64,000 nt of DNA from assembly GCA_002869225.1 (NCBI GenBank), contig PKTG01000122.1, forward strand, positions 32,071 to 96,070, in the 5' to 3' direction. The translations under genes were made by a program, and so were the position numbers. The notes beneath the pieces were generated by a model. The model did no database searches. It was not told where the DNA came from and was given only the letters and a program-made list of their open reading frames with translations. Source of the stretch: Candidatus Muiribacterium halophilum (GTDB lineage Bacteria > Muiribacteriota > Muiribacteriia > Muiribacteriales > Muiribacteriaceae). Shown piece after piece: positions 14,867-54,043 of the stretch (the stretch's first letter is position 1; every line of letters begins with the position of its first letter).

Positions 14867-16425
14867 AAAACAAAACATTAAGCTTTTTTATTTGTGCTGT
14901 CATCTTGGTATTTCCTTTTTCCATATTAAGTATGTAATTTGATATGGGAACTATTGAAGTACATGATATAAAAGCCGTTATAGATCAGGATAGTTTCTCG
15001 GAAAAGTCCAGATTCGTATTTGAGGAAAGTAAGTTCATTCCAGATGAAAATATCAAAAAGGATATTGACTTATCTGGTGAATTATCGGAACTTAGAGATT
15101 TTAATAGAAGTAAATGGATAAAGATACTTATAGGAGATTATTCTCTTGAGGATATTTTAATAGGTTATGAACAAAAGGAACTTAACTATCTTTGGAAAGG
15201 TGAGTTTTCATCTTTTAACAAGGATGTTTATAGACTGCCAACGAAAGATATAAAGAAAAATCAGTTAAAGATACTTTATGATTATTCCTATGGGAAATTG
15301 AGTTTTTCAACTGAAAGTCTTTTTTCTGAAGAAAAAAGGTATTTTGCCGGAAGTGACAATTCACCATTAAACAGTTATTTTGTAAGACACAAAAAGACTT
15401 TTTTAAGTGGTAATTTTTATACACCTGTTATTAGAGGGTGGAATCTAAATGGGTTTATAGATCTGGAGGAAAAAGAAGTCAAAAAGGAATGGGTTCCATT
15501 GAATTTGGGAACGTATGACAATAATGCCATCTCTATTTCGGGTCAAAAAGAATTTGATTTATGGAAAAACATTTTTGCCAATCTTGAACTTACCTTTAAT
15601 ATGGACAATATAAAGTTTAAGGGGATGGAAAGAGATGCTGATGGCTTTTCAATCAATACTACTTTTAATATATCCAATCCGGATTTTAGTGTTATTTCAA
15701 GATTGTATATTGTAAAAAAAGGAATAAATGAAAAAGATGCATTTTCTGTAGAATATATAAAATATCTAAATGAGGATAATACTTTTGGTATAGTTGCTGG
15801 TAGAGAATATAAGGATCATACTTTTAATGACCTTTATTTTTCAAATAATATTATCTTATCAAATAATATCTTAGATGTACGTGGTGAGGAACATGATAAA
15901 TTCGAGTTATATTATGGTTTTAATATTGATGGTTGGGAATCTAAACTGACTTTAGGAGTCAGTTCTATATCAGATCTTCTATATTTCTATGATATAAACA
16001 GCAATGACAGAAAAGTTTATCCAGCATATATGAAGGATATTGATAGAACGAAAATAATGTTTGAGTCTTCTAAGGATATTGATGAGGTATCAAGTCTTAC
16101 ATTAAGATTCGATTCAAATAATGATGAAAATATAGTCCCTTATGTACCTGAAAATAGATTTAAAGCGAATTATTCATATGAGTATTCTCAAAATACTCTT
16201 TTTGATCTAGGAGTTGAGTTTATCGGGCAGTACTATAATATGATTGGAGGCGGTTTAAAAAACGATTCAAGGATAATTTTAGATCTTGATCTTAAAAATA
16301 CGATTAAAGATAATACAACACTGCTTCTATCTATAAATAATATCCTTGATGATGAAAATAAATTGAAACCTGGATTTTCAGAAATAGGTAGAAATATTGA
16401 ATTAGGGATAGAACATATTTTTTAA
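14863..16425 (+). pseudogene. Outer-membrane beta-barrel protein (TonB-dependent-receptor-like C-terminus) with an in-frame TAA at 14935-14937 between signal peptide and mature part
   Basis: TTG 14863 opens a signal peptide (KNKTLSFFICAVILVFPFSILSM), then TAA, then the same frame continues into the 14944 ORF. C-terminus ...GRNIELGIEHIF ends in Phe like OM barrels. Sits directly upstream of exbB-exbD-tonB. Confidence 0.6.
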
Positions 16426-16437
16426 TGGAGGAGTTTT

Positions 16438-17040
16438 ATGGAACTGTTAGCTAAAGGTGGTTTTTTTATGTTTCCACTCGTTGTTTGTTCGGTGCTTGCA
16501 CTAGCAATATTTGTGGAAAGACTCTTATATCTTAAAAGGACTCGTATTGACAGCGAATCTTTGATGACAAGAATAAGAGAGGTTATAGAAGCTGGTAAGG
16601 TCGAACTTGCTATTCATACTTGTAAGAGAGCTGATACTCCGCTTTCAAGAATATTACTAGCAGGTATCAAGAATTTCAATAAAGATTCCGAGACAATAAA
16701 AGCATCGATCGAACAGGCTTCACTTGAGGAACTTCCAGATCTTGAGAAGTTCGTTCCTGCTTTAGGTACAATAGCCCAGATAGCTCCGCTTATTGGATTT
16801 TTAGGAACTGTTACTGGAATGATAAAATCCTTTAATGTTGTTGCGAGTCAGGGACTAGGAAATGATCCTAAAGCTCTTGCAGGTGGTATAGCTGAAGCAC
16901 TTATAACAACTGCCACCGGACTTATTGTCGCTATTCCTGCTTTTGTACTTTATAATTATCTGACAAATACTATAGATAAATTCTTGCTTGAGATTGAAAG
17001 AAGGAGTATGGAAGTAGTAAGTATACTTGATAAGGAGTAA
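16438..17040 (+). CDS. exbB: MotA/TolQ/ExbB family proton channel
   Basis: 3 TM helices with GFLGTVTGMI and EALITTATGL motifs. GGAGG RBS. Confidence 0.9.
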   Translation: MELLAKGGFFMFPLVVCSVLALAIFVERLLYLKRTRIDSESLMTRIREVIEAGKVELAIHTCKRADTPLSRILLAGIKNFNKDSETIKASIEQASLEELPDLEKFVPALGTIAQIAPLIGFLGTVTGMIKSFNVVASQGLGNDPKALAGGIAEALITTATGLIVAIPAFVLYNYLTNTIDKFLLEIERRSMEVVSILDKE

Positions 17041-17043
17041 TTA

Positions 17044-17472
17044 ATGGAAAGATTTAAACGACGAAGAAAAAAGAATACTATACTGTCAATAGAAAGTGTT
17101 GCTATGACAGATGTCGTGTTTTTGCTTTTAATCTTCTTTATGCTCTCTACTACTTTTGTATCTCTAGATAATGGTGTTAAGATAGACCTTCCATCCGGAG
17201 GACTAAAAAATATCAAGGTCATTGATGAGATCAATCTTAAGATAAGTAAAGATGGCTCTGTATTCTTTCATGGTAGAAAGCTTGATGAAGATTTTGATAG
17301 AATAGTTCAGGCTGCGCTTAGAAATAGTAATAAGAAGACGGTTATAATAAGTGCTGATAAGGATACAAGGCACGAGAATGTAGTCGATGTAATGAATAAG
17401 GTTTTAAAACTTGGTGCAAAAAGTATAGCAATAGCTACTAGAGAAGAGATAGTAAAAGAGGTGAAAAATTGA
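17044..17472 (+). CDS. exbD: ExbD/TolR family protein
   Basis: N-terminal TM (MTDVVFLLLIFFM) plus a periplasmic domain. Follows exbB by 3 nt. Confidence 0.9.
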   Translation: MERFKRRRKKNTILSIESVAMTDVVFLLLIFFMLSTTFVSLDNGVKIDLPSGGLKNIKVIDEINLKISKDGSVFFHGRKLDEDFDRIVQAALRNSNKKTVIISADKDTRHENVVDVMNKVLKLGAKSIAIATREEIVKEVKN

Positions 17473-18362: not shown

Positions 18363-18365
18363 GCG

Positions 18366-19595
18366 TTGATAGCATTTCCAGTCACATCAGCATGTCCTCT
18401 CAGTTGTGTGTTTTGTTCACACAATGGTAATCCATTTGACCTAAAAGTCGAGGAGATCAATTCTTATGATTCTGATCAAATACTAAAAAAAGCATCACTT
18501 ATAAAAAACAGAGAAATAGTAATAGGTGAATCTGCAACAAGGGTAATCGAAGGAGAACCCTTTTTATTTAAAGATATAATGAGGCTTATTGATATACTTG
18601 CTGAAAACAATAATAGTATATCTATAACTACAAGCGGAGTATTTTTAGATGAGAAGATCATAAAACGTCTGTCTGAGATACCGAAGCTTGAGATGAACAT
18701 CTCTGTTAATTCCATTGATCCTGAGTTTAGGAAAAAGTATCTTGGAGATAGGATAAGTAAGGACTTCAGGAACATACTTCACCTTCTTGATCTTTTTGAT
18801 GTTTCATATACTTCAAGTGTTGTGGCTTTAAAGATAAATAACGGTTTTGATGATCTGATAAAGACAATTGAATTTCTTGGAAAAAGTAAAAGTATACTAA
18901 ATCGAATTTTTATACCAGGCTTTACAAATATAAACAGAAACCCGATATTTGATTTTGATATAACTATACTTGAAAAGACGTTGAGAAAAATACGTGAAGA
19001 AAAAGTCCCGATAATAATCGAACCAGGTCCAATTGAAAAAGATATTAAAGTGCAGGCGATCCTAAAGTCCAGTGTTGCGGATGAGAATGATATTAAGTTT
19101 GATGATGTAATACTTTCTTTAAATGATAAAAGTGATCTAACAAGTAAAGATGTACATGAATTGCTTAAAGTAAATGGAAGGCATAAGATAAAAATAAAAA
19201 GAGGAAAGAGTATTATAAAAAAGGAGCTTAATATAAAAAACAATAGATCTGGTATAATACTTAAGGACAGTCCTTCAATGGAGTTGATGAAAAAAATAAG
19301 CTCTATAACAAAAGAAGATGATATCATAATCTGTTCGAGATTTTCAGAAGATTTTTTTAAAGGGATGTTTCCTTTTAAAAAAGTCCTTTCAGTTTCATGT
19401 GACAGGTTTGGAGGGAATATTTCCTGTAATGGACTCTTATCTGTGGGTGATATAAATTCGATATTACGAAAAGGTCAATGTGAATCAATAGTAATCGACC
19501 CTTCATTCCTAAATAACGATGGTATTGACCTTTTTGGACAGGATATTTATTCAATAACCTATGAAAAAGATATAAATATCAAGCTTCTTTATTAA
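18366..19595 (+). CDS. Radical SAM protein with PDZ-like and DUF512-like C-terminal regions
   Basis: CX3CX2C (CPLSCVFC) at residue ~10 and a GEPF glycine-rich motif. C-terminal FGGNISCNGLLSVGDI resembles the DUF512 signature. TTG start. Confidence 0.6.
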   Translation: MIAFPVTSACPLSCVFCSHNGNPFDLKVEEINSYDSDQILKKASLIKNREIVIGESATRVIEGEPFLFKDIMRLIDILAENNNSISITTSGVFLDEKIIKRLSEIPKLEMNISVNSIDPEFRKKYLGDRISKDFRNILHLLDLFDVSYTSSVVALKINNGFDDLIKTIEFLGKSKSILNRIFIPGFTNINRNPIFDFDITILEKTLRKIREEKVPIIIEPGPIEKDIKVQAILKSSVADENDIKFDDVILSLNDKSDLTSKDVHELLKVNGRHKIKIKRGKSIIKKELNIKNNRSGIILKDSPSMELMKKISSITKEDDIIICSRFSEDFFKGMFPFKKVLSVSCDRFGGNISCNGLLSVGDINSILRKGQCESIVIDPSFLNNDGIDLFGQDIYSITYEKDINIKLLY

Positions 19596-19628
19596 ACAAA
19601 CTTTAATGTTTACCGATAATTAGTTGAT

Positions 19629-20825
19629 ATGCTTTTAAATTTTCTTTTATTTGAACCGGATGAGAAACACGAATACTATAGTGGAATAAACCAGGGAGTC
19701 GCGATACTTATTCAGATCGCGAAAGACAATGGTCATGAAACTAAAGTATATTCTTTAGATCCTAAAAAACTCGATATTTTAGAGGATATTGAGTTGGAAT
19801 TAAACTCTTATTTTCTTATATCCACCTACTCGTTTGCAAGAGATACAATAAAAAAAGCAATTGCTGTGTTAAACAAACGTGGTTTTATGAACGTAATACT
19901 TGGTGGACCACATTTCACATTTGCTCCTGAAGACTTTTATGATGTTGATTTCCTTTGGGGTATAAGAGGAGAAGCTGAATTAATATTTGAGGATTTTTTA
20001 AATTGGAGAATCGATATAACTACCAAGGGTGTAGTTTACAGAGAAAATGATACTTATGTGGATAACGGTATTGCAGATCCAATTGAGGAAATTGAACGTT
20101 TTAAACCTTTTATTTATAAAGAACTTCAAGGAAAAGCAAAAAATTTAATAGGTGCTGAGATTCTAACATCAAGAGGATGTCCGTATTCGTGTTCTTATTG
20201 TCTGAACAGCGCTTATAACAACGAGTATGGAAGATGTTTGCTTAGAAGAAAAAGTCCGGAAAAAGTTATAAACGAGATACTGGATTATCCTTATGAATAT
20301 GATATTGTAGGATTTCATGATGATGTGTTTTCCCTTGATAAAGATTGGCTTAAAGAGTTTCTTTCCTTATACAAAAGGTTCATAAATAAAAGGTTCTGGT
20401 GTAATATACATGTCTTGAGTATCGATCAGGAAATAGTGAATATGCTAAAAGAAGGTGGTTGTGAAAGAGTGCATATAGGAGTTGAGAGTGGAAGTGAGAA
20501 GATAAGACATCTTATGAAAAGAGAGCATATGACTAATTCAGATATAATATCCGTATTTGATATGTTTAGACAAAGTAAAATAAAGACCGTGTCCTTTAAT
20601 ATTATTGGGTTTCCAGGAGAAACCGAAGAAGATATAAAAAAGACAATAGAACTTAATAAAGAGATAAGACCAGACTGGATATTGGTATCTAGATTTCAAG
20701 CATATCCAGGAACAGATTATTATAAAAAAGAATCAGAATTTCTTCAGAACTATTATAAGAGTAATGGAAATGATCTATATTCAAAATATCATGATGATTT
20801 TGTTAGCTTAGTCAGAGCTAAATGA
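19629..20825 (+). CDS. B12-binding-domain radical SAM protein
   Basis: N-terminal Rossmann-like domain, then LTSRGCPYSCSYC (CX3CX2C) and HIGVESGS. Confidence 0.75.
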   Translation: MLLNFLLFEPDEKHEYYSGINQGVAILIQIAKDNGHETKVYSLDPKKLDILEDIELELNSYFLISTYSFARDTIKKAIAVLNKRGFMNVILGGPHFTFAPEDFYDVDFLWGIRGEAELIFEDFLNWRIDITTKGVVYRENDTYVDNGIADPIEEIERFKPFIYKELQGKAKNLIGAEILTSRGCPYSCSYCLNSAYNNEYGRCLLRRKSPEKVINEILDYPYEYDIVGFHDDVFSLDKDWLKEFLSLYKRFINKRFWCNIHVLSIDQEIVNMLKEGGCERVHIGVESGSEKIRHLMKREHMTNSDIISVFDMFRQSKIKTVSFNIIGFPGETEEDIKKTIELNKEIRPDWILVSRFQAYPGTDYYKKESEFLQNYYKSNGNDLYSKYHDDFVSLVRAK

Positions 20826-20877
20826 CGAAATTCACCTGACGCGAGAGATATGACCTGCGAACCTATACCCGATTTCC

Positions 20878-20906
20878 TTGTCATTATGCCAAATTCAATG
20901 TATTAT
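20878..20906 (+). promoter_or_regulatory. Candidate sigma70-type promoter for iorAB (TTGTCA - 17 nt - TATTAT)
   Basis: Hexamers about 40 nt upstream of ATG 20947. An overlapping TATAAT lies at 20904-20909. Confidence 0.3.
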
Positions 20907-20946
20907 AATTACATCAAAAAAAACAATTGATTATTAAGGATATAAT

Positions 20947-22683
20947 ATGGATAAAAGACAGTTTCTTACAGGAAATCAGGCAATTGCACGATGTGCCTGG
21001 GAGGCTGGAGTCAAAGTTGCATGTGCATATCCTGGCACTCCAAGTACTGAAATAGTAGAAGAGATAGATAAACTCGAAGATATTTCATCAGAATGGTCTG
21101 TAAATGAAAAGGTTGCTTATGAAGTAGCTTATGGTGCAGCTCTTTCAGGGAGTCGAGCTGTTGTATGTATGAAACAGGTTGGTTTAAATGTTGCAGCTGA
21201 CCCTTTCTTTACCTCAATATACACTGGTGTTAACGCTGGTCTTGTATTAGTTTGTGCAGATGAACCAGGTGTCTTCTCATCTCAAAATGAGCAGGATAAT
21301 AGGAACTATGGACCTTTTGCCAGAATACCTATACTTGAACCGGCTGATTCAGAAGAATGTAGGCTTTTTATGAAGGAAGCATTTGAGATATCCGAGAGAT
21401 TTGATACTCCAGTTATGATAAGGTTGACAACAAGAGTATGTCACACACACACCATCACAGGGTTGAATATTAGAGAAGAAGTAAAGAAGCATGAATATAA
21501 AAAAGATGCAAGAAAACGATCGATGATACCTATATACGCTTTAAAAAGACACGAGATAGTCGAGGAAAGGATCAGAGAACTTAAAAAATTTAACGAAGAA
21601 TTTGCGTGCAATAAGATATTTCAGGGTACAAGAAAGGATCTTTGTATCATATCTTCAGGAATGGCGAGTCAGCACGTTCTTGAAGTTGCAGAAGACATAT
21701 CCATACTAAAGCTTGCGATGTCATATCCAATGCCTGATGATCTTATAGGAGATTTTTGCAGTGAGTACGAAAAAGTACTTGTGGTAGAAGAAAATGATGA
21801 TTTTATTTACAATAATATTCTAAGAATTATTAATAAAGAAAAAGTCATAAAGAAACCAGATCATATGAGGGTGGATGAACTCAATCCTGACCGTGTCAGA
21901 AGGATTTTAGATGAAAACATAGATAATACCTCTTCTGATAATACAAAGCAGGATGATTTATCGCTACCACCAAGACCACCTCAGATGTGTCCGGGTTGTC
22001 CACATAGGGCCGCGTTTTATCTTTTAAGGAAATATAAATATACAATAACCGGAGATATTGGTTGTTATGGTCTGGGAGTTCTACCTCCTTTTGAGGCAAT
22101 GGATACTATAATATGTATGGGTGCATCTGTTAGTATGGCTCATGGATTCGATAAAGGAAATAAAGATGCTGTTGGTGTCATAGGTGATTCAACTTTCTTT
22201 CATACAGGTATAAATTCCTTGATAAATTCCTATTACAATAATGGAAGATCTGCTGTTGTAATTCTAGATAATTCAATTACAGCTATGACTGGTGGACAGG
22301 TAAATCCATCATCAGAAAAAACAAAGACAAGATCTGTATCAATTGAAAATGTTGTAAGATCTATAGGGATTGAAGATGTAAGGGTGATCGATGCTTACGA
22401 TTATAATAAGCTGGATAAAGAGATAAAGGCTCTAAAGGATAGAGAAGACCTTAGAGTGCTTATTGTGAGGCAACCATGTGTTCTTATAAGAAAAGACAGA
22501 CCTTCAAAACCACTTTTTATAGATAAAGAAGAGTGTATAAGATGTGGAATTTGTCTTAAAGTGGGATGTCCTGCTATAAGTGTGGATCAGGAAAAGAGAC
22601 CTTTTATTATAGGATCGTTTTGTTTTGGATGTGGAGTTTGTAAAAGTGTTTGTCCAAAAGGAGCTATAAAAGATGGTGAATAA
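20947..22683 (+). CDS. iorA: Indolepyruvate:ferredoxin oxidoreductase alpha subunit
   Basis: GNQAIARCAWEAGVKVACAYPGTPSTEI N-terminus, a TPP-binding region, and two C-terminal ferredoxin-type Cys clusters (CIRCGICLKVGCP, CFGCGVCKSVCP). Confidence 0.88.
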   Translation: MDKRQFLTGNQAIARCAWEAGVKVACAYPGTPSTEIVEEIDKLEDISSEWSVNEKVAYEVAYGAALSGSRAVVCMKQVGLNVAADPFFTSIYTGVNAGLVLVCADEPGVFSSQNEQDNRNYGPFARIPILEPADSEECRLFMKEAFEISERFDTPVMIRLTTRVCHTHTITGLNIREEVKKHEYKKDARKRSMIPIYALKRHEIVEERIRELKKFNEEFACNKIFQGTRKDLCIISSGMASQHVLEVAEDISILKLAMSYPMPDDLIGDFCSEYEKVLVVEENDDFIYNNILRIINKEKVIKKPDHMRVDELNPDRVRRILDENIDNTSSDNTKQDDLSLPPRPPQMCPGCPHRAAFYLLRKYKYTITGDIGCYGLGVLPPFEAMDTIICMGASVSMAHGFDKGNKDAVGVIGDSTFFHTGINSLINSYYNNGRSAVVILDNSITAMTGGQVNPSSEKTKTRSVSIENVVRSIGIEDVRVIDAYDYNKLDKEIKALKDREDLRVLIVRQPCVLIRKDRPSKPLFIDKEECIRCGICLKVGCPAISVDQEKRPFIIGSFCFGCGVCKSVCPKGAIKDGE

Positions 22684-23266
22684 TATTTTTATATCAGGAG
22701 TTGGTGGACAGGGAATAATCACTGCAAGTAGAATAATCTCAGGAGCTTTTTTTGAGGCAGGATTTGATGTTAAAAAGGCTGAGATACATGGATTATCTCA
22801 AAGAGGTGGGTCAGTTGTATCTCAGATAAGATATGGTGATAAGGTCTTTTCCCCTATAATACCAAAAGCGAAATGCGAACACGTGCTTTCGCTTGAAAAG
22901 ATGGAAACATTACGTTATATGGAGCTTTATAATAGTAAGACCAGATTTGTTATAAATGATCTTAAGATGCTTCCTATTACAGTCAGTTCGGGAAAATTTG
23001 ACTATCCGGAAAATGTTAAGGACATCTTATTTTCAAGAGGTATAAATGATATAAAGCTTATTGATGCGGATGCAATGGCCAAAAAAGAGTTTTCAGATTC
23101 TAGAATGGCTAATACTATACTTATAGGAGTTATGTCATCAAGTATTGATATTGATGAAAATAATTGGATTTCTTCAATTCATAAAAATATAAAAAACAAA
23201 TATATAGAAAAAAATATTCAAGCTTTTAAGCTTGGGAAAAAATACGGGGTGGAAAATGTTAAATAA
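22673..23266 (+). CDS. iorB: Indolepyruvate:ferredoxin oxidoreductase beta subunit
   Basis: ISGVGGQGI N-terminus and ~197 aa length. Overlaps the iorA stop. Confidence 0.8.
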   Translation: MVNNIFISGVGGQGIITASRIISGAFFEAGFDVKKAEIHGLSQRGGSVVSQIRYGDKVFSPIIPKAKCEHVLSLEKMETLRYMELYNSKTRFVINDLKMLPITVSSGKFDYPENVKDILFSRGINDIKLIDADAMAKKEFSDSRMANTILIGVMSSSIDIDENNWISSIHKNIKNKYIEKNIQAFKLGKKYGVENVK

Positions 23267-24578
23267 TTTTGTTTCGTTTATTGGAATCTTTGTTTTACTT
23301 GGAATCGCTTATCTTTTATCGGATAACAAAAAGAAGATCAATTGGAAACTCGTTAGTTGGGGAATAGGTCTTCAACTTGTGTTTGCTTTTATTATTCTTT
23401 GGACAAAACCTGGTAGAGTATTTTTTGCATGGATAAAAGATGCTGTTGAAGTGCTTCTTGGTTTTACAAGAGCTGGTTCGGTATTTGTATTTGGAGGTCT
23501 GGTTGACAATATTGACTCATTTGGTTATATTTTTGCCTTTCAGGTCCTTCCAACTATAATTTTCTTCTCATCCTTTATGTCAGTACTTTATCATCTCGGA
23601 ATTATGCAGAAGATAGTAGTAGTAATGGCAAAAGCTATGACAAAATTTATGGGTGCATCGGGAGCTGAAAGTCTTTCATGTGCTGCTAATGTTTTTGTTG
23701 GTCAGACAGAAGCCCCTCTTGTCATTAAACCTTATATTAAGACTATGACTAAATCCGAGGTCATGACTTTGATGACTGGTGGTATGGCAACTGTAGCAGG
23801 TGGAGTAATGGCAGCTTATGTAGGTATGGGAGTAGATGCTGGACATCTTCTTGCAGCAAGTATTATGTCTGCACCGGCAGCAATTGTCATGGCGAAACTA
23901 TTAGTCCCTGAAGTGGAAGAGTCTCAGACTGCTGGAGATGTAAAACTTCAACTTGAGAAGACTTCTGTAAATGTTATTGATGCAGCAGCATCAGGAGCAG
24001 CAGATGGATTGAAATTAGCGTTAAATGTAGCTGCAATGCTTCTTGCTTTTATAGCACTTATTGATATGGTGAATTTCTTTATTGTAAAACTTAGTGGATT
24101 GTTTCTTACTGATCCTCTTACATTTCAGGGATTATTATCTTATATATTTGCTCCAATAGCTTGGATAATGGGTGTTCCTAAAGCCGATATGTATGAGATA
24201 GGAAAACTTCTTGGTATTAAGACTGTCCTTAATGAGTTTGTTGCTTATGCTGAACTTTCCAAAGTTGTTGGAAAACTCTCAGAAAGATCAGTAGTAATAG
24301 CTACTTATGCACTTTGTGGATTTGCAAACTTTTCATCAATAGCTATTCAGATAGGTGGTATTTCAGCCTTAGCACCAGGTAAAAAACATATGCTTGCAAA
24401 ACTAGGCATGAAATCCATGATAGGTGGCACTTTAGCTGCATTTCTTACTGCAACTATAGCCGGAATGTTATATCAGGAACCAACAAAGGCTTTGGATAAT
24501 ATGAAAGACGGTAAGAAAGTCTCATGTAATACAGTATATGAAAAAGATATAGATTATTGGAGATTGATTAGTGATTGA
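23256..24578 (+). CDS. nupC: NupC/CNT family nucleoside transporter (track start 23232; ATG 23256 is more likely)
   Basis: Polytopic protein with CNT motifs (FVGQTEAPLVIKPY, GFANFSSIAIQIGG). Confidence 0.88.
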   Translation: MLNNFVSFIGIFVLLGIAYLLSDNKKKINWKLVSWGIGLQLVFAFIILWTKPGRVFFAWIKDAVEVLLGFTRAGSVFVFGGLVDNIDSFGYIFAFQVLPTIIFFSSFMSVLYHLGIMQKIVVVMAKAMTKFMGASGAESLSCAANVFVGQTEAPLVIKPYIKTMTKSEVMTLMTGGMATVAGGVMAAYVGMGVDAGHLLAASIMSAPAAIVMAKLLVPEVEESQTAGDVKLQLEKTSVNVIDAAASGAADGLKLALNVAAMLLAFIALIDMVNFFIVKLSGLFLTDPLTFQGLLSYIFAPIAWIMGVPKADMYEIGKLLGIKTVLNEFVAYAELSKVVGKLSERSVVIATYALCGFANFSSIAIQIGGISALAPGKKHMLAKLGMKSMIGGTLAAFLTATIAGMLYQEPTKALDNMKDGKKVSCNTVYEKDIDYWRLISD

Positions 24579-24846
24579 TAAAGATACTACTGTAAAGTCA
24601 CCTGATAATATTCTTTTTACTCAACTCGAGGATGAGATAATCATCCTCGATATAAACACTGGAAAATATTTTTCTTTAAACTCTACAGCTGCGGATATAT
24701 TTAGAAGATTTGTAGATGGTGCTTCGTTTGGTGAAGTCCTGGATGAGATGAAGATAAGATATCCGGAGGCTTCAGAGAGACAACTCGAAAATGATATAAG
24801 AGAGATCATTATAGATCTTCGTGAAAGTGAGATATTTGATTTTTAA
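24571..24846 (+). CDS. PqqD-family protein (RiPP recognition element type; candidate lasso B1)
   Basis: 91 aa. ILFTQLEDEIIILDINTGKYFSLNSTAADIFRRFVDGASFGEVLDEMKIRYP...ENDIREIIIDL is the canonical PqqD/RRE pattern. GTG start overlaps the nupC stop. Confidence 0.8.
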   Translation: MIDKDTTVKSPDNILFTQLEDEIIILDINTGKYFSLNSTAADIFRRFVDGASFGEVLDEMKIRYPEASERQLENDIREIIIDLRESEIFDF

Positions 24847-24848
24847 TT

Positions 24849-27800
24849 ATGTACGAGATATGTTTTTATAATCTGGACATGTTTTTTTTTATACAGGCAT
24901 TACTGTATTCTTTTTCAATAATTTTTTGTTATCAGATATTTAATAAAGAAAAAGATCCATCTTTCCTTTTTTCGATTTTTGCCATGGTAGTACTGATTAT
25001 CAATATATTTTATGCAGGAATCGGAAGATTAGCTGATTTTAATTACGACTTTTCTGTAAGGCTTTTCTTTTTTATAATAATCCTTATAGAGGCTTTTTTT
25101 ATTGCTTTTAAGGGGAAAGAAAAATATTTCTTACGGTCTGTTGTTCTTGTACTCCTTGCAGGAAGTGACCTTACTTATGATTGGCTTTACAGAGAGATAT
25201 TTGCAGCTTTGATGTGTTTTCCACTTTTTCTGATTTATTTTAACGATCTGAAAAAAATAAAAAGTTCAGGTGAGATCAAAAATTTAAGCAAGATATTTAT
25301 ATTTTTTGCATTACTTCTTATATTTTCTTTTATTGTTATCTACAAAATAGGTCAGAAGGATTTTAAGCGTTTTTATTCGGATACACAAAAAAATCTATTT
25401 GAGATAAAAGGTAGAATAGAACGGGAGATAGATAATAGTCATACTCTACTAAGACTGTTTCCTGGAAAAAAGATAATAGATATCTTAAAAGATCCTATAG
25501 AGAATAACGATGATAAATATCATATTTACGAAAGATTTGATAAGTTAATATCTTTAAATCAAGGTAGTATTGTATATATAATGGATAGAAACGGAACTGT
25601 CTTGTTATCTTCAAATCATAATGAGAAGGATAGTTTCGAAGATAAAAATTTTAATTTTAGACCTTATTTTCTGGAAGCACTTCACGGACAGGATTCATCT
25701 TATATAGCCGTTGGTAAAGTAAGCGGTAAAAGAGGGTTATATATTTCCAGTCCAATAACTGATAGTAATAATAAGGTAGTAGGTGTCATAGTCTTAAAAA
25801 GACCTATGGAAATAATCGATGATATGCTTGAGTATAATGTTTTTATAATAAGCGAGTATGGTCTTATATTTTCATCAGGAAATAAGGATGATCTTTTAAG
25901 ATTTATTACACCAAAAGATATAGAGGTAATAAATAAATTAAGAGACAGTCAGCAATTTTATCTTAGCGATATACCGACTCCGATATTATCTAAACCTCTA
26001 GAAGAAGGAAAGATTGTCATTGATGAAAGTCAAAGTATTTGGGAGAATCTCTTGCCGGTTAGTTTTAAGCTTTCTGTTAAAGGGTTTAATATAATAAAAT
26101 TACAGGAATTTGATGGATTACATGAAAGAAGAATCCTAATAGATATGTTCCTCTTTTTCTGTTTTTTCTTTCTTTTTACAATAATAGCACATTATCAAAA
26201 TATTAAAGTGATTATGATGAGATTGAGAAACTCAGAGAGAAATCTTGCCCAAACGTTGGACCTTATGGCTGTTTTGGTCTTTGAGGTGGATGAGAGCTTA
26301 AATCTTTTATATTATAACAAAGCTTTTAATGATTTCTTTGGATTAGTAGATGAAGTTTCAAATTTAAAGGATGTCGTTCATAAAGATTCTATTCCAGATA
26401 TCATCTATATTTTTGCTAAAATGAAAAGATCGCCTATTTCTGATTTTGAATTTAATTTTAAAGATCAAAAAGGTGATAATAAATTTGTATTAATAAGTTC
26501 AACAAGTTTTATAAGAAATTCAGCTTTGAATTATAGAGTTGTACTTTATGATATAACCGGGAAAAAAGAGCTTATGAAAGAACTCGAGACCACAGATAAT
26601 AAATATTCATATACTCTTGAAAGTTTACCGTTGCCTCTTGTTGAGATAGGTGATGATAAAAATATATATTTAGTAAATGAGAGTTTCGTCGATGAATTTT
26701 TCTTTGAAAGAGATATACCATGTCTGGTAGAGGATGTCTTTTCCGAAAATTCCTTAGAGAATATTAACAATGCACTTGAAAAAGTTTTTAAAGGAGAACG
26801 AGTAGATAATATAGAAATATCTAGAAGAAAAGGAAAAAGAGAAAAATATTTTCTTGGATCAGCAATACCAGTATACGAAAAAGGTCACTTGACCAAAGGA
26901 AGATTTATCTTTAATAATATTACATCTTTGATCAGATATGAAAATGAGATCAGGGATCTTTTTATAGCAGTAGATACCTCCCTTGTTGGAATAAGTATAT
27001 ATACAAAAGATCTTATAATTATTTATTGCAATCCTATGTTCGAGGAAATAACCGGATATAAAAAGAGTGAGATAATTGGAAATACATCGGATAAAATAGG
27101 TATGAATTTTATAATAAGGGAAAAAGGATGGGAAGGTGAGATAACTTTAAATGATAAACAGGGAAAAGAAAAAATAATGTATCAGAAAATATCACCTGTT
27201 TATTCAAACAATAAAAACATTACTGGTTATGTCTCTGTAATAATAGATGTCTCTGATAGAAAGGAACTTGAAAAAGATCTCTTAAAAGCTAAGAAAAAGG
27301 CTGAAAGATTGAGTGAGACTAGGAAGCTTCTTATGATGAAGATGTCTCATGAGATAAACACTCCTCTAAATAAGATCATAAATATCGCACAAATATCCAT
27401 AGATCAATGCGTAGATAAAAATACATCGGAAGATCTAAAAAATATCATCTCAGAAAGTAAATTACTCAATCAGATAATAAGAAATATTCTTATATTATCT
27501 GAAATAGAGATGAATGGCTATAATATGAACATGAAAGAGACTGATGTAATATCAACAATTGAGGATACTGTGTAAAATCATCAGGAGTATGCTAAAGAAA
27601 AGGGAGTAAAAATAAACTTTGAGAAGAAGGATAATAGAATCGAAGATGTGATTTTGATTGACAAAAATGTTCTTGAACTGGTTTCTGGAAATCTTATATC
27701 AAACGCGATTAAATTTTCAAAAGATGGTAATGTAGATATAAATATCTCTTTAGATAAAGAACGAAAAAATATATTAATATTGACAGTAAAAGATAACGGA

Positions 27801-28451
27801 GTCGGGATTGAAAAAAATAAACAGACCCTTATTTTTGAACCATTCTTCCAGGAAGAGGATAGTTTGAGAAGACAATATCAGGGTCTTGGGATCGGTTTAT
27901 CGATAGTTAAAAAGGTACTTATCAGTATTGGTGGAGATATATTTTTAGAGAGTAATAAAGGAACAGGTTAAATATTTAGAGCAAGAATACCTTATAAAAT
28001 ATCTGCTAATAAAAAGACAACTAAAGTAGAAACTGATAAAACAGAATCTAAATTAAAAAATATTGGAAAAATAAATGTACTTGTAGTTGATGATGCAAGA
28101 GAAAATCGTTTTATCGTAAAGACATATCTTTCAAAACTTGGAATAAAGCCTGATGAAGCTTCTGGAGGCGAAGAAGCTCTTTTGTTAATAAAAGATAAGG
28201 ATTATGATATAATATTACTTGACATACAGATGCCAGGAATTGATGGATATCAAGTTTTAGATGAGGCAAGGCAACTAGAGGAAGGTAGAAGTAAAAAAGC
28301 TTTTATTATTGCACTGACGGCACATTCTTTGCCTGAAGATGTTGAAAAATCAAAAGCAGCAGGATTTGATGAGCATATAAGTAAACCGATCAGAAAAAAG
28401 GAATTCTTAATAAATATTAAAGAAGTAATAGAAAGGATGATCAAAGGATGA
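24849..28451 (+). pseudogene. Hybrid sensor histidine kinase (multi-TM, Cache-like, PAS, HisKA, HATPase_c, REC) carrying two in-frame TAA codons (27573-27575, 27969-27971)
   Basis: Track ORFs 24849, 27648 and 28182 share one frame with no other stops. H-box MSHEINTPLN. N/G boxes NLISNAIKFS ... DNGVGI ... GLGIGLSIV ... GTG*IF. REC has VLVVDD ... ILLDIQMPGIDG ... HISKP. Confidence 0.8.
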
Positions 28452-39545: not shown

Positions 39546-40574
39546 TCATAGCTGATTTCTGTATTCGTCATTTTCAAATAGATTTTTTAATGCATCTTTT
39601 AGATGGTCAACATCTTTTGGAGGTACTTTAATACCTGTCTTTTTATCAATGTTGACCTCTTTCATTCCGGAGTCAACATTTGTACTTATAACTGGAATCG
39701 AACACGCCATGGCTTCAAGTTGTACTATTCCAAAAGCTTCGGATGTTTCAATAGAAGGTAACACAAATATATCAGATGAGTTTAAAATTGCTTTTAATTG
39801 AACATCATCAGCTTCCGGTATGAATATTATTCTCTTATCTTCCATTGACTGTGCTTTTAAAGTAGAATAATAAGGACCATTTCCTACTATTATTAGATTA
39901 TAATCACCATCGATTTGTTTAAACGCATCAACTAGAAAACTTACTCCTTTATAGTATACAAGTCTTCCAACAAAGACAGCGTTTTTTGAGTTTTCTCCAA
40001 GAAATTCTTTGATTCTTTTTATCCTGTCTAAGAGCTCTTTATCTTTTTCGAAACTATCTATATTAATCCCATAAGGGATAATCTTAACTTTTTCCTCAAA
40101 TTCAGGAAGTATATCAGAATATTGAACATGATAAGGAGTGGCCGCTATTATGGCATCTGCTCTTTGATATATCTTTTTCATCAAAGGCTTATAGAATTTA
40201 TATACAAATTTTTGTGCAACTATATCTGAATGATGACTAATAACAAGTTTCTTATCTTTAGGTAATCCGGCCATTTTCATCAATAGATGAGCCGATGGAT
40301 TTGGCATGTGAATGTGATATATATCACTATCATCTCCTAAAAAGGAAAAAAACATTGAAAGTGAAAAAGGAGTTGAAAAGACCTCAAATAGTTTGCCGTT
40401 TCTTTTTATTGTCACGTTTCCTTCAACCTCTTTTGATGAGAAGAAAGAATCGTTAAAGACTTCCACTGTTAATTCTTCAACCTCGTTTTTTATATTGTTA
40501 ACCAGTGAGAAGAGATGATTTTCAATCCCTCCTTTATATGGAGGATAGTATTTGCCTATCTGTGTTATCTTCAT
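39546..40574 (-). CDS. GT4 glycosyltransferase
   Basis: GGIENH N-terminus and EX7E region (PSIETSEAFGIVQLEAMACSIPVIST). Confidence 0.85.
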   Translation of the reverse strand: MKITQIGKYYPPYKGGIENHLFSLVNNIKNEVEELTVEVFNDSFFSSKEVEGNVTIKRNGKLFEVFSTPFSLSMFFSFLGDDSDIYHIHMPNPSAHLLMKMAGLPKDKKLVISHHSDIVAQKFVYKFYKPLMKKIYQRADAIIAATPYHVQYSDILPEFEEKVKIIPYGINIDSFEKDKELLDRIKRIKEFLGENSKNAVFVGRLVYYKGVSFLVDAFKQIDGDYNLIIVGNGPYYSTLKAQSMEDKRIIFIPEADDVQLKAILNSSDIFVLPSIETSEAFGIVQLEAMACSIPVISTNVDSGMKEVNIDKKTGIKVPPKDVDHLKDALKNLFENDEYRNQL

Positions 40575-46679: not shown

Positions 46680-47609
46680 ATGGACTTTAATATGAAGCAC
46701 ATTATATCTATCAATGATTTTCAAAGAGAAGAGATAGATTATATTCTTGACCAATCAAAAAAGATGGAAGAATTACCACAAAAAGATAAAATAGAGCTTT
46801 TTAAAGGTAAGGTAATGGCTTCCTTGTTTTTTGAACCTTCAACAAGAACAAAAGATTCATTTATTTCTGCTTGTCTCAAAATGGGAGGCAATCATGTAGG
46901 ATTTAGTGATACATCTTCAACCTCTTTAAAAAAAGGAGAGACCTTTGCGGATACGATTCGGATGTATGAAAAGTATTCGGATATTCTTGTAATAAGACAT
47001 AGCATCGAAGGAGCAGCCAGATATGCTTCTGAGATTCTTAGTATTCCAGTTATCAATGGTGGAGATGGCGCAAATCAACATCCTACTCAGACGTTACTTG
47101 ATCTTTATTCAATAAAAAAATCAAAAGGATCGATAGATAATAATAATATTTTAATAGCTGGTGATCTTAAGTATGGTAGAACAGTTCATTCATTATCATT
47201 AGCTTTAAGTCTATTTGATAATATCAATCTTACATTTGTGAGCCCACCATCTCTTAGAATGCCGGATGAAATTACAGAGATGCTGAGAAACAGAGGAGTC
47301 AGCTTTTCTATTTATGACAATCTTGAAGAAGCTGTAAGGGACAATGATATAATTTACATGACTCGTATACAGAGGGAAAGATTTCCAAATGGTGCTTAAT
47401 ATGAAAGAGTCAAGAACTCTTATCTTATCGATAGAGAGCTTTTAGAAAGATGTCCTACCGATATCAGGATCATGCATCCTCTACCTAGAGTAGGTGAGAT
47501 CTCAACTGAGGTAGATCATATGCCACAGGCCTTATATTTTCAACAGGCAGCAAACGGTATTCCGGTGAGACAATCGCTGCTTATGCTTCTTACAGGAGGT
47601 GTTCTATGA
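46680..47609 (+). pseudogene. pyrB: Aspartate carbamoyltransferase catalytic chain with an in-frame TAA (47397-47399)
   Basis: STRTK, HPTQ and the post-stop continuation YERVKNSYLIDRELL...IMHPLPRVGEISTEVD...YFQQAANGIPVRQSLLMLL are all in one frame. TGA 47607-47609 overlaps the pyrI ATG. Confidence 0.9.
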
Positions 47610-50501: not shown

Positions 50502-52211
50502 ATGAGTGTATTAATATTAAACTATGACCCTTCAGGTCTTTATAAGAGAAATGAGGTCTTGAACTGCCTTTTATTAGCAGCTTTGCTTAAAAGACATTCT
50601 ATTTCCTATAAAATAAAAGAGATATCATCGATTTCTGATGAGGTTGTAAATGATGAAAGATTTGTCGTCATAACCTCAAGAGAGAAAAAGGTTCAGGAGC
50701 TTGCTTTAAAAATAAAAAAAAGATACAAGACAAAGGTTTTGATATTCTTTCATGAGTATTTCTCTTTTTTTATAAACAAAGATTTCTTAAAAATAGTCGA
50801 TATTGTTGTTGTTGGTAATGGGTTTAATGCTATAATTGATTTGATAAAAGATTTGAAAAGGAAAGAAACTGGTATAAAAAGTACTGCCTGGCTAAGTAAT
50901 GGAGTGGTGAATATCAATTCATCTCAAAACCCGATTGATCTTAAAAAGGTAGGTAAGTTACCCTACTCAAAATACCCTGGTTGTGGAATATATAAAGAAG
51001 CTGCTTTTAAATATTCTCCTTATGAGGAAGGAAAGGATGCTGCTCTTATCTTTTTTTCCAGAGGATGTAAGTCAAGATGCAGTTTTTGTATAAATCCTAT
51101 TTTTTATAAAAGAAAAGTGTATTATCGTGATCCATTTGATGTTCTTGAAGATATTGATTTTTTTATAGAAAAAGGAATCGTTCATTTCTCTTTCGAGGAC
51201 GAGAACCTTATTGCAGATAGAAAAAGGTTTAATGAACTCTATACCCATATTAAAAAGAAGAATATAATGTATAGATGTCACGGTGCTATTCGTGATATTG
51301 ATAATTCTATTTTAAAAAAACTTTTCGAGAGTGGTTGCAAAAGGTTGGATATTGGTATCGAGACTGCATCACTTGATCTTCAAAGCAAAATAAACAAGAT
51401 AAACGGTGTAAAACGTGTGATTAAAGTATGTAATCAGGTAAAGTCCTTTGGCATAAGACCTTTTATACTTATGATGCTTGGTTTTCCTGGCGAGACCAGG
51501 GAAGATCTTTTAAAGACCAAAGGTTTTCTTGAGATCTTAGAGAAAAATGGGATGGAGTTTGGTCTATCCTTGTTTAGACCACTTCCTGGAACTTGTTTTG
51601 AAAAGATAAAAGGAATAACTGAAACAGGTTTTTCCAGCCATGGTAAAGATGTTCTTCATTATATAGGTGACGAGACAGATGTAGATGAAATAAAACGTAT
51701 TTATAAAAGATTTACATCAAAAAAACTCATTATCCCTAATGAATCAAAGTCAATAAAAGTTGTTAGAAACGGAAGTTCTTTTATTAGAGCCGATGAATAT
51801 TTTGAAGCTGATTTCAAACCGGTTCCTTTAAATATATGGAACGGGGATAAGTGGGATAGTAAAGGACTTGCTCATCTTGTTGGAAGATTCAAAGGTTATA
51901 TAAAGTATAGATTTTCAAGCAGTGAAAGTTTTAAAGCAAATATTAAAATCAGATTTAGAGCGTGTACCCAGACAGATGAAAAGGGAAATCTTGTTATTAC
52001 AATAAACGAAAATAAGAAAGAGGTATACATACCAGAAAAAAGTGAATCGGGTGAAATATTATGTGTTGAGTTTGAAAATATAACGGTAGATATTAAAAAT
52101 GAGCTATGCATCCTATGCAACTCTGAGATGGGGTTGAGTCTTTTCTTATCTTTTGATGATTCAAAAGTGGATAATAAAAGTATAGAAATAAGTACTTGTG
52201 ATGTGTTATAA
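50502..52211 (+). CDS. B12-binding-domain radical SAM protein with a ~170-aa beta-rich C-terminal extension
   Basis: FSRGCKSRCSFC (CX3CX2C) after a Rossmann-like N-domain. The C-terminal third matches no motif I recognise. Confidence 0.7.
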   Translation: MSVLILNYDPSGLYKRNEVLNCLLLAALLKRHSISYKIKEISSISDEVVNDERFVVITSREKKVQELALKIKKRYKTKVLIFFHEYFSFFINKDFLKIVDIVVVGNGFNAIIDLIKDLKRKETGIKSTAWLSNGVVNINSSQNPIDLKKVGKLPYSKYPGCGIYKEAAFKYSPYEEGKDAALIFFSRGCKSRCSFCINPIFYKRKVYYRDPFDVLEDIDFFIEKGIVHFSFEDENLIADRKRFNELYTHIKKKNIMYRCHGAIRDIDNSILKKLFESGCKRLDIGIETASLDLQSKINKINGVKRVIKVCNQVKSFGIRPFILMMLGFPGETREDLLKTKGFLEILEKNGMEFGLSLFRPLPGTCFEKIKGITETGFSSHGKDVLHYIGDETDVDEIKRIYKRFTSKKLIIPNESKSIKVVRNGSSFIRADEYFEADFKPVPLNIWNGDKWDSKGLAHLVGRFKGYIKYRFSSSESFKANIKIRFRACTQTDEKGNLVITINENKKEVYIPEKSESGEILCVEFENITVDIKNELCILCNSEMGLSLFLSFDDSKVDNKSIEISTCDVL

Positions 52212-52241
52212 TTATACTAATTCAATCAAAACGGAGGGAAA

Positions 52242-53087
52242 ATGAAAAAAACACTTTCAATTCTACTTATTATGATATTCATTCTTTCAACCAATGTATT
52301 TTCGGAAGAAGCGACAATGGAGTCTCTTATAAAAGAATATCCTGAACTTGAAAAGGAAATCAGATTAAATTATAGAGCTGAGTTCGATTATTCTGTGGAT
52401 GGTTTTAGTGTAACGGATGATGTAATAGGGTTTCAAAACTTCGGACTTGATAAGAAGAGAGACGGAAGTACAAATGAGTTTACTTATGAAGATGTTCTTT
52501 CAAGAGGACAGGAAAGAAATCTTCTTCTTTCAAACACTGGTTGGGCGCATTGTTTTGCAATGTCATTTCTTACTAAACAGTTTTTTGATCACGGTAATTT
52601 TTCTACAGCTATTAGCTCTGACAATATTAAAAGACTTATAGAGGATATCTCAAAAAAGAAAAATAGAGATATACCAGGGGAAAATCTCTGGAAATTTTCG
52701 AGAAAATATAAAAAAGATATGAAAAAAGTTCTTGAACCACTACAGAAAAAATTGTTTTTTAATCTATCAAGTATAGGTCTTCTTTTTGGTTCGGATCAGA
52801 AAAAAGCATATAAAGAGATAAGAGATACCATAAAAAGTGACAATTTATGCCTTATTGGTCTAAAAAAGTCTCTCACATGGCAGCATGTCGTGGTTGGTTA
52901 TAGAGCGATAAAAAGAGGAAATGATGTATATATTTATATTTATGATTCAAATTATCCGTATGTCTCAGATGATATTAACAATGATTACATCACAAAACGA
53001 CCAAAATATATAAGATATGATATAAGTAAGAAAAAATTCAGATCTTCCAGTTATGGAGATATAAAAGTATTTAAGATATATAGATAA
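52242..53087 (+). CDS. Secreted protein, possible papain-fold Cys/His hydrolase
   Basis: Signal peptide. Candidate nucleophile context NTGWAHCFAMSF and His strand WQHVVVGY followed by YDSNYP. Confidence 0.3.
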   Translation: MKKTLSILLIMIFILSTNVFSEEATMESLIKEYPELEKEIRLNYRAEFDYSVDGFSVTDDVIGFQNFGLDKKRDGSTNEFTYEDVLSRGQERNLLLSNTGWAHCFAMSFLTKQFFDHGNFSTAISSDNIKRLIEDISKKKNRDIPGENLWKFSRKYKKDMKKVLEPLQKKLFFNLSSIGLLFGSDQKKAYKEIRDTIKSDNLCLIGLKKSLTWQHVVVGYRAIKRGNDVYIYIYDSNYPYVSDDINNDYITKRPKYIRYDISKKKFRSSSYGDIKVFKIYR

Positions 53088-53092
53088 AAATT

Positions 53093-54043
53093 TTGAAAAA
53101 AATAGTATTAATCTTTTTAATTTTATTATTTACATATGCACACGGACTTAAAGTCGGTGTGCTTATGCCTTTCGGATCAAAAAAAGATCCTACCTTTGGA
53201 TATATGGTGAAGAAGGGAATCGAGTTATTTTAAGAAAAATATTCTCATATTGATATTGAGATAGCATATCCATCACCTGGTGTTCCTTTTACATCCTATT
53301 TGAAATATTTTTCCTTGAAAAGCGATTACATTATAGCTGCGGGATTCATGTATAAAGAAGCGCTTTACGAACAGGCTAAGAAGAATATAGATGTAAAGTA
53401 TTTTTTAGTGGATAGTTGTGTAGATCTTCCGAATGTATGTTCAATAGTATTTGATGATTATCAGGCTGCTTTTGTAGCTGGTGTTATGACAGCAAAGTTT
53501 TTTGCTAACTGGAACCTTGCATTTATAGGAGCCTCTCCGTCCTTTTTATCTGATAATTTTTATTATGGTTTTTTTAACGGATTAAGATATCAGGGTTATG
53601 ATAAGGATTTTGAAAAATATTTTATTTCAAATGAAATAGTCGGTTTTGTGAATCCACAGAAGGGAAGGGCGCTTGCTGATAAACTATTCTCAAAAGATAC
53701 AGACCTGATATTTGCGCCAAGTGGAGCGAGTTCGATCGGGGTATTACAATCAGCTGTAAAAAATGAGAAGTTTGTAATAGGAATTGACAGACCATTTGAA
53801 GATCTATCAGAAAACGGTGTTGTCTTTTCTTTATCAAAAAGAATTGATAAAGCCTTGTATAAGGTCTTATATCAATCAATAATCGAAAACGATTTTCAAT
53901 CCAGAAAAGTGCTTTTTGATTTCTCCAACGGTGGTTATGAGATACCATATAGAAAAAGATTAGAACGCGTATATGGATATTATAAGATGAAATGGTACGA
54001 TGAATTTATTCAAAAGGTGATAAACGATGAGATCGTTTACTAG
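53093..54043 (+). pseudogene. BMP/PnrA-family substrate-binding lipoprotein with an in-frame TAA (53231-53233)
   Basis: TTG 53093 opens a signal peptide and LKVGVLMPFGSKKDPTFGYMVKKGIELF, then TAA, then the same frame continues (EKYSHIDIEIAY...) into track ORF 53300. BMP landmarks: IAAGFMY, FLVDS, NV.SIVF, FVAGV, GIDRP. Confidence 0.75.

Follow-up and report, generated by a model that had tools for sequence, protein, structure and literature searches.

Private G:C>T:A substitutions, probably derived from oxidised guanine, account for in-frame stop codons in a metagenome-assembled genome of Candidatus Muiribacterium halophilum

We analyzed a 64-kb stretch (the window) of the GenBank metagenome-assembled genome (MAG) of Candidatus Muiribacterium halophilum, in which 57 genes were counted and the G+C content was 31%. 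Four independent assemblies of the population to which the window belongs served for comparison: JGI 3300007102, ENA ERZ794998, ENA ERZ794999, and Logan SRR5894287. Their identity with positions 1303–64000 of the window was 99.8–99.9%. Nonsense codons interrupted 6 of the 57 genes, all of which were full-length in the comparison assemblies (1200, 520, 372, 372, 309, and 316 aa). The original prediction described six genes with one stop each; its six stops were all present, with the reading frame continuing on both sides, but they lay in five genes, as a hybrid histidine kinase carries two of them, and a seventh stop in a further gene was overlooked. Pfam domains were searched in translations with X substituted at the stops.

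The first stop, TAA at 14935–14937 on the plus strand, occupied codon 25 of a gene for a 520-aa secreted/outer-membrane protein (14863–16425), just past the signal peptide. It arose by a window-private G>T at 14935; the codon was GAA (Glu) in JGI, ERZ794999, and SRR5894287, each of these three assemblies having one intact gene, while the truncated product in the record is 493 aa long (PLX16116.1). No Pfam match was obtained for this protein, which had been described as an outer-membrane barrel. The 1200-aa hybrid histidine kinase (24849–28451, plus strand) was interrupted twice: by TAA at 27573–27575 (codon 909, private C>A at 27574) and by TAA at 27969–27971 (codon 1041, private C>A at 27970). 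In each of the four other assemblies both codons were TCA (Ser); the second is the serine of the G-x-G-S motif within the HATPase_c domain (residues 938–1050). The product in the record (PLX16126.1) has 908 aa.

Two glycosyltransferases of the GT4 family, both of 372 aa and both on the minus strand, carried TGA stops. In the first gene (36098–37216), TGA at 36602–36604 replaced codon 205 owing to a private C>A at 36604 (plus-strand notation); GGA, encoding the glycine of a G-R-x-x-x-x-K-G motif, was found here in ERZ794998 and ERZ794999. The gene is represented in the record by two fragments (PLX16138.1, 204 aa, and PLX16137.1, 160 aa), and the Glycos_transf_1 domain (200–335) crosses the stop. 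The overlooked seventh stop, TGA at 39546–39548, lay in codon 343 of the second gene (ancestral extent 39456–40574) and resulted from a GGA>TGA change (private C>A at 39548), GGA being kept in all four other assemblies; the last 30 aa are lost, leaving a product of 342 aa (PLX16141.1).

The 309-aa pyrB gene (46680–47609, plus strand) contained TAA at 47397–47399 (codon 240, private G>T at 47397). All four other assemblies had GAA (Glu) at this site, which aligns with the conserved glutamate of the "EY" motif in solved ATCases, and the OTCace domain (154–303) crosses the stop. Finally, TAA at 53231–53233 (codon 47, private C>A at 53232) interrupted the plus-strand gene for a 316-aa Bmp/PnrA-like lipoprotein (53093–54043); the codon was TCA (Ser) in JGI, ERZ794998, and SRR5894287. 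The product in the record has 231 aa (PLX16153.1), and the Bmp domain (24–281) likewise crosses the stop.

A single indel-type disruption was found in the window. The A8 homopolymer at 32598–32605 (plus strand) was A9 in JGI, ERZ794998, and ERZ794999, and this 1-bp deletion frameshifts and truncates a 253-aa gene starting at 32046. Of the 57 genes, 6 were broken by nonsense codons and 1 by a frameshift. Nanopore-type error was rejected as a source of the disruptions, since the window had only one indel.

At every stop site, each covering assembly, 2–4 independent ones per site, had a sense codon (GAA, TCA, or GGA), which had been named beforehand as the observation that would point to an artefact. 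Among protein clusters at 90% identity, truncated forms came only from NCBI/UniRef (PLX accessions of the 182,030-bp contig), and intact forms from JGI, ENA, Logan, and a second NCBI record. Exact look-ups of the 239-aa PyrB, the S122Y oxidoreductase, and the 908-aa kinase in the contig index returned no record. A search of genome contigs with the 372-aa oxidoreductase revealed no conspecific genome (the top match was 28% identical), and a 41-nt pattern spanning the 27970 site, with both alleles permitted, had no match in metagenome contigs. With PyrI, the metagenome contigs yielded distant relatives alone, none above 48% identity, and no additional conspecific assembly. At natural polymorphic sites the window differed from each of the other assemblies in a mosaic pattern, and planted or simulated mutations were rejected on this ground.

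The continuation of homologous sequence in frame beyond every stop could suggest functional recoding, that is, full-length expression through readthrough, a suppressor tRNA, selenocysteine at TGA, or partial reassignment. In-frame TGA and TAA inside conserved domains do resemble genetic codes 4 and 25, selenocysteine insertion, and suppressor tRNA systems, and the TGA stops align to glycine, as in code 25. However, the stops were confined to the window: none recurred in another assembly of this population, not even in genomes sharing 99.9% identity with the window. The ancestral codons were GAA (two), TCA (three), and GGA (two), so three amino acids were replaced, and TAA, standing for Glu twice and for Ser three times, would need two meanings. 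Normal gene ends were TAA in 32, TGA in 16, and TAG in 9 of the 57 ORFs; TAA and TGA thus terminate 48 of the 57 genes normally. The view that global reassignment is unlikely was borne out, as all three codons terminate genes at positions matching the other assemblies. Orthologues of the interrupted genes had GGA, GAA, or TCA at the stop sites, a finding at odds with programmed readthrough or selenocysteine. The 64-kb window contained no tRNA genes, including those of suppressor type, and no Rfam family at the gathering threshold, hence no element such as SECIS; no common downstream context followed the stops. Recoding and readthrough are rejected: a functional role of these stops is extremely improbable, and they are not a translational feature. 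Of the options previously left open, context-dependent readthrough or suppression is not supported; what remains is an artefact of base substitution or unselected mutation of very recent date.

The window had 51 private substitutions, and 32 of these, including all seven stops, were G:C>T:A. The same class made up 2 of the 23 private changes of ERZ794998, ERZ794999, and SRR5894287 (Fisher p = 1.1e-5). The idea that an excess of nonsense changes over frameshifts reflects a substitution process was supported; all stops arose from one class, G:C>T:A at GA or GG. The remaining 25 private G:C>T:A changes comprised 20 missense, 3 synonymous, and 2 intergenic ones and extended from 2038 to 62923 (positions 2038, 5895, 6341, 11282, 15283, 20992, 29117, 30312, 32759, 33255, 34551, 37574, 37726, 38181, 42770, 45270, 50724, 50802, 51012, 53079, 55069, 57801, 60615, 61286, and 62923). 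The load amounted to 1.6e-3 changes per G:C site, or about 0.5 per kb. Spacing over the window was Poisson-like (CV 0.85), without clustering of events (6 gaps below 400 bp versus about 5.7 expected) and without a shared direction between neighbouring events. On the plus strand, the 32 changes were divided into 16 G>T and 16 C>A, and no asymmetry was found relative to the coding strand (16 vs 14).

The sequence context of the mutated G was strongly biased. The base on its 3' side was A or G in 31 of the 32 events, against a background of 59% (p = 1.3e-6). NGG contexts were enriched 1.5–4.7 fold (CGG>CTG 2.5-fold), and NGT and NGC contexts together contributed 1 event versus 13 expected. AGA was the second most frequent context among the G:C>T:A events, and the TGC and TGT contexts were empty. 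Both features of an 8-oxoG signature were thus present: predominance of G:C>T:A and preference for the 5' G of GG and GA. The 5' G of GG is reported to be preferentially oxidised, and 8-oxoG artefacts of library preparation favour CCG>CAG (PMC3616734; bioRxiv 10.1101/2020.08.04.234245). Human OGG1-knockout cells show a signature with peaks at TGC and TGT and depletion at GG, while in MUTYH deficiency the tallest peak is AGA>ATA (TCT>TAT) (bioRxiv 10.1101/2020.08.04.234245). The context observed in the window therefore fits guanine oxidation and differs from the human OGG1-knockout signature. Illumina channel cross-talk was rejected on account of the specific context together with the one-way direction of change.

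Coding effects of the G:C>T:A changes were 20 missense, 7 nonsense, and 3 synonymous. Without selection, the same class of change in the same genes is expected to give 77% missense, 13% nonsense, and 9.7% synonymous changes; the deviation was not significant for synonymous changes, and p was 0.086 for nonsense ones. The other private coding changes (n = 18) included 11 synonymous versus 4.5 expected (p = 0.0013). Consequently, the G:C>T:A set bears no sign of purifying selection, whereas the other, older private changes do. Such a neutral pattern is expected from an artefact and from a very recent hypermutator clone alike and does not discriminate between them. None of the seven nonsense changes fell in a clearly essential gene. 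One of the missense changes, G16C in an oxidoreductase alpha subunit, affects the N-terminal GNxAxxxGA motif; missense changes of conserved residues of this kind do not discriminate between an artefact and real, unselected mutation.

These data argue against ordinary gradual pseudogenisation through relaxed selection or genome reduction in the species, which we regard as very unlikely. Several of the affected genes belong to non-essential envelope, sensing, and biosynthesis functions, as such decay would predict, yet they were intact in all the 99.9%-identical assemblies. Decay should also leave a mixture of frameshifts, deletions, and substitution classes; here, seven of eight disruptions belonged to one class and none was shared. 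Moreover, the older private changes were under purifying selection.

The stops are probably consensus errors private to this MAG that originated from oxidised guanine. Guanine would have been oxidised and the resulting 8-oxoG read as T, giving G:C>T:A. Damage-derived alleles may then have entered the consensus because effective templates were few, because depth was low, or because minority variants were applied during consensus building or polishing, and the living population would keep intact genes. Changes of this class turn GAA, GGA, and TCA codons, abundant at 31% G+C, into TAA or TGA, and about 13% of their hits are nonsense. The class creates stops and not frameshifts, which explains the interruption of about 10% of the genes and the rarity of frameshifts.

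The published 8-oxoG artefacts (Costello et al. 2013, PMC3616734) resemble the window set in several respects: nearly all are G:C>T:A, G before G is preferred, the CCG>CAG change reported there is equivalent to CGG>CTG here, and they are sample-specific, other data for that organism being free of them. The 32 alleles of the window were likewise absent from the independent assemblies. Unlike the published artefacts, which occur at a low fraction of reads (<20%; PMC3616734), those of the window stand in the assembly consensus, and GA is affected as well. Where coverage is good, low-fraction artefacts should be kept out of the consensus, and the contig in question is 182 kb long; an additional assumption (a bottleneck, low depth, or the consensus step) is therefore required.

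In a rival reading the changes are real: one enrichment culture would have been dominated by a clone carrying about 0.5 unselected G:C>T:A changes per kb, and the affected genes would be true recent pseudogenes. Either 8-oxoG repair (MutY/MutM type) would have been lost, or oxidative mutagenesis would have been heavy; in cultures that reduce perchlorate, reactive chlorine species could be its agent. We regard this as possible though rather unlikely. A long contig argues for good depth, at which consensus alleles are majority alleles, and the spectrum, context, and neutral coding pattern are those of an unselected mutator lineage, the nonsense hits sparing obviously essential genes. The organism itself comes from perchlorate-reducing enrichments, as reportedly described by Barnum et al. 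(2018).

Known mutators reach about 1e-7 per site per generation. A load of 1.6e-3 per G:C site would thus need thousands of generations, yet the window has very few other differences from its relatives. Extrapolated, this load disables about 10% of all genes. In addition, the 32 alleles and the truncated proteins occurred in none of the run-level assemblies (Logan, ENA, and JGI). The JGI assembly had five G>T changes of its own, all in GA or GG context and none overlapping the window set; one of them, GAA>TAA, divides a heparinase-like gene in two. The window and JGI therefore hold independent sets of the same kind at different doses, which are explained more easily by sample handling than by two mutator clones.

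Deficiency of the GO system (MutY/MutM; MUTYH, OGG1; SBS36, SBS18) shares with the window the dominance of G:C>T:A, typical GAA>TAA nonsense changes, accumulation without selection, and a prominent AGA>ATA, which tops the MUTYH-deficiency signature and corresponds to the second commonest context here. The OGG1-knockout signature, in contrast, peaks at TGC and TGT, which are favoured in repair-deficient human cells and empty in the window, and is depleted at GG, the opposite of our set; the load of the window is also very high, considering how little else has diverged. No DNA repair genes (mutY, mutM, mutT) were found within the 64-kb window. Hypermutable lineages of experimental evolution are clonal cultures followed for tens of thousands of generations. 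Their decay resembles our set in the single substitution class, dN/dS near 1, and nonsense changes at the neutral rate; the lineage of the window differs in being otherwise near-identical to its relatives and known only from one metagenome bin. A more specific scenario, in which a clone in the perchlorate-reducing enrichment underwent extreme guanine oxidation (by reactive chlorine or oxygen species, or after loss of 8-oxoG repair) and then swept the culture, is advanced only tentatively and seems doubtful to us. If true, the clone would carry about 500 unselected G:C>T:A changes per Mb, about 10% of its genes would be inactivated, and natural chemically driven hypermutation would have been caught in a metagenome.

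For translation, the stops bring nothing new, and their practical importance concerns data quality. The record is apparently the published reference MAG of the candidate phylum Muiribacteriota. In the 64 kb analyzed here, about 0.5 substitutions per kb are suspect, truncating 6 of 57 genes and altering 18 more proteins; the truncated and altered proteins are already in GenBank and UniProt. Pseudogene counts, metabolic reconstructions, and recoding scans that rely on this record will go astray; for instance, the broken pyrB suggests that the organism is a pyrimidine auxotroph, which is probably untrue. Findings of in-frame stops can be quickly triaged by three questions: whether the changes belong to a single substitution class, whether they share a common damage context, and whether their coding effects occur in neutral proportions. 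Better copies of the loci are present in ERZ794998, ERZ794999, SRR5894287, and JGI 3300007102.

All six reported in-frame stop codons were found in the window, in the secreted/OM protein or "OM barrel" (14935–14937), the hybrid histidine kinase (27573–27575 and 27969–27971), a GT4 glycosyltransferase (36602–36604, minus strand), pyrB (47397–47399), and the Bmp lipoprotein (53231–53233). The frame resumed with homologous sequence past each stop; however, the interrupted genes number five and not six, as the original prediction had it. In Pfam scans with the stops replaced by X, codon 1041 of the hybrid kinase (second stop) was within HATPase_c (938–1050), and codon 909 (first stop) lay between HisKA and HATPase_c. 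Codon 205 of the GT4 protein was within Glycos_transf_1 (200–335), and codon 240 of PyrB was within OTCace (154–303) and aligned with the Glu that is conserved in the "EY" motif of solved aspartate carbamoyltransferases. The Bmp domain (24–281) spanned codon 47 of the full-length gene, corresponding to residue 43 in the fragment that was scanned. No Pfam domain was matched in the "OM barrel" protein; its stop, codon 25, immediately follows a signal-peptide-like stretch, and the gene is a single unbroken ORF of 520 aa in other assemblies.

The same loci were reached via intact neighboring proteins in four independent assemblies of the same population: JGI metagenome 3300007102, ENA ERZ794998 (a 293-kb contig, also in NCBI), ENA ERZ794999, and the Logan assembly of run SRR5894287. 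Jointly, they span positions 1303–64000 of the window at 99.8–99.9% identity. Every assembly covering a given stop site, two to four per site, had a sense codon there, the outcome that the original prediction had named as a refutation; the codons were GAA at 14935 and 47397, TCA at 27574, 27970, and 53232, and GGA at 36604 (minus strand). The full-length proteins in these assemblies were 520, 1200, 372, 309, and 316 aa long. The list of disruptions was also slightly extended. A seventh premature stop, absent from the earlier list, was found in a second GT4 gene (GGA>TGA, 39546–39548, minus strand), with a loss of 30 aa. An A8 run at 32598–32605, which is A9 in three other assemblies, frameshifts a hypothetical gene of 253 aa (32046-) and reduces it to a 191-aa ORF; this was the sole gene-disrupting indel difference. 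The ancestral second GT4 gene (39456–40574, minus strand) overlaps the next gene (38497–39501) by 46 nt, an overlap abolished by the TGA at 39546.

The stops are thus not a biological recoding phenomenon. Readthrough or suppression has a negligible probability, because none of the stops is conserved, TAA would need to mean both Glu and Ser, and TAA and TGA are also normal terminators here: the 57 main ORFs end in TAA (32), TGA (16), and TAG (9), which is ordinary usage. Neither tRNA genes nor Rfam elements were found within the 64-kb window.

At 51 positions, the window departed from the reference assemblies where these agreed. Of the 51 changes, 32 were G:C>T:A (16 G>T and 16 C>A on the plus strand), and all seven stops belonged to this class. 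Among the private changes of ERZ794998, ERZ794999, and SRR5894287, it accounted for only 2 of 23 (Fisher p = 1.1e-5). The 3′ neighbor of the mutated G was A in 19 cases, G in 12, C in 1, and T in none, against a background of 59% purine (p = 1.3e-6). NGG trinucleotides were enriched 1.5–4.7 fold among the events, the TGA context 1.9 fold, and AGA 1.3 fold, while the eight NGT and NGC contexts together had 1 event vs. 13 expected. The events were spread evenly along the window (CV of gaps 0.85). Gradual pseudogenisation is highly improbable, since it would hardly proceed through a single mutational class, and the genes are intact in 99.9%-identical genomes. Among the private changes of other classes, A:T>C:G made up 7 of 19 (10919, 25091, 39745, 52964, 55545, 62399, and 63163) vs. 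2 of 21 in the three other assemblies (p = 0.06), and they may form a second error-like class.

In the absence of selection, a G:C>T:A change in these genes is expected to be missense in 77% of cases, nonsense in 13%, and synonymous in 9.7%. None of the other five substitution classes has so high a nonsense yield, a consequence of the abundance of GAA (4.4% of codons), GGA (2.4%), and TCA (2.3%) in this AT-rich genome. The observed effects (20 missense, 7 nonsense, 3 synonymous) did not differ from the neutral expectation (nonsense p = 0.086). The other 18 private coding changes, on the other hand, included 11 synonymous ones vs. 4.5 expected (p = 0.0013), which is what purifying selection usually leaves on real polymorphism. 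The window therefore consists of an ordinary strain background and an unselected G>T overlay. The excess of nonsense changes over frameshifts held in our analysis, with a single frameshift found; it is no longer puzzling, since a pure G:C>T:A process gives exactly this pattern in such a genome.

The class and context of the overlay are those of oxidized guanine. Oxidation reportedly strikes most easily at the 5′ G of GG, and MUTYH deficiency gives a peak at TCT>TAT, i.e., AGA>ATA (bioRxiv 10.1101/2020.08.04.234245). Oxidation during library preparation produces C>A/G>T errors with a preference for CCG>CAG, again the 5′ G of GG (PMC3616734). The human OGG1-knockout signature, in contrast, has its maxima at TGC and TGT and is depleted at GG (bioRxiv 10.1101/2020.08.04.234245); these contexts are opposite to those of the window, whose pattern therefore resembles raw damage more than damage that has passed through partial repair.

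The JGI assembly contained five private G>T changes of its own, all on the plus strand and all in GA or GG context (window positions 6802, 32139, 33436, 35216, and 42181), none of which was common to the window. The change equivalent to 35216 (L007, about 16769–16794) converts GAA to TAA and breaks a heparinase II/III-like gene into parts of 474 and 243 aa. The signature was as in the window and the density about one-fifth, so the same process acted independently, at different doses, in two data sets from one population.

The window's alleles and truncated proteins were found in none of the run-level assemblies (Logan, ENA, JGI). Because of this absence and the independent JGI set, we favor, as the fairly probable origin of the overlay, damage-derived errors that entered the consensus of this MAG. 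A real hypermutated clone is a less likely but serious possibility: it would be expected to leave the same spectrum and an equally neutral pattern, and none of the stops fell in a clearly essential gene. Such a clone, however, would carry a load of 1.6e-3 per G:C site in a lineage that otherwise shows hardly any private divergence, and both the missing alleles and the second set in JGI argue against it. The weak point of damage-derived errors is that oxidation artefacts normally occur at low allele fraction (PMC3616734) and would not be expected to prevail in the consensus when a contig is 182 kb long and well covered. An extra condition would be needed: a bottleneck of template molecules, as with amplified or low-input DNA, low depth, or a consensus/polishing step that applied minority variants. 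The last of these would also be compatible with the mosaic allele sharing of the window: at natural polymorphic sites between 1303 and 58000, alleles are common to different assemblies in turn (e.g., 5131 with ERZ794999; 5371 and 6237 with SRR5894287; 12344 and 13916 with JGI), reflecting either population recombination or a mixed-strain (co-assembly) consensus.

The stops are best regarded as a quality problem of one public MAG. Its samples (Barnum et al.) were reportedly perchlorate-reducing enrichments. Exact sequence matches assign the window to Candidatus Muiribacterium (Muirbacterium) halophilum; its proteins are deposited in GenBank as PLX161xx with locus tags C0601_, and the truncated products are public entries from one 182,030-bp contig: the hybrid kinase (PLX16126.1, 908 aa vs. 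1200 aa elsewhere), Bmp lipoprotein (PLX16153.1, 231 vs. 316 aa), GT4 (PLX16138.1 and PLX16137.1, 204 + 160 vs. 372 aa), second GT4 (PLX16141.1, 342 vs. 372 aa), and secreted/OM protein (PLX16116.1, 493 vs. 520 aa). Barnum et al. 2018 based the description of the species on MAGs; assembly GCA_002869225.1 serves as its type (PMC10408702). The practical value of our analysis lies in the flagging of this reference record and in a simple mutational-class test.

Several other features of the window were observed. Nine private changes cluster at 51867–56617, where ERZ794999 has no coverage; they are mostly synonymous and of A>G, T>C, and other non-G>T types, and probably represent a natural haplotype block outside the G>T overlay. 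A small replaced or recombined patch occupies the intergenic region 35984–36069, which separates the convergent heparinase-like and GT4 genes: ERZ794999 disagrees there with both the window and ERZ794998 at 18 of 86 positions, with identical flanks. A 642-aa ORF (7573–9501), intact in all assemblies, encodes a fused lipid A biosynthesis protein with LpxI_N, LpxI_C, and LpxB domains. Directly upstream of the hybrid kinase, the region 18366–24846 encodes two radical SAM proteins, one of which carries a B12-binding domain, the paired alpha and gamma subunits of an oxidoreductase (Pfam POR_N/POR), a nucleoside transporter, and a PqqD-like protein of 91 aa, and may be a peptide- or cofactor-maturation cluster.
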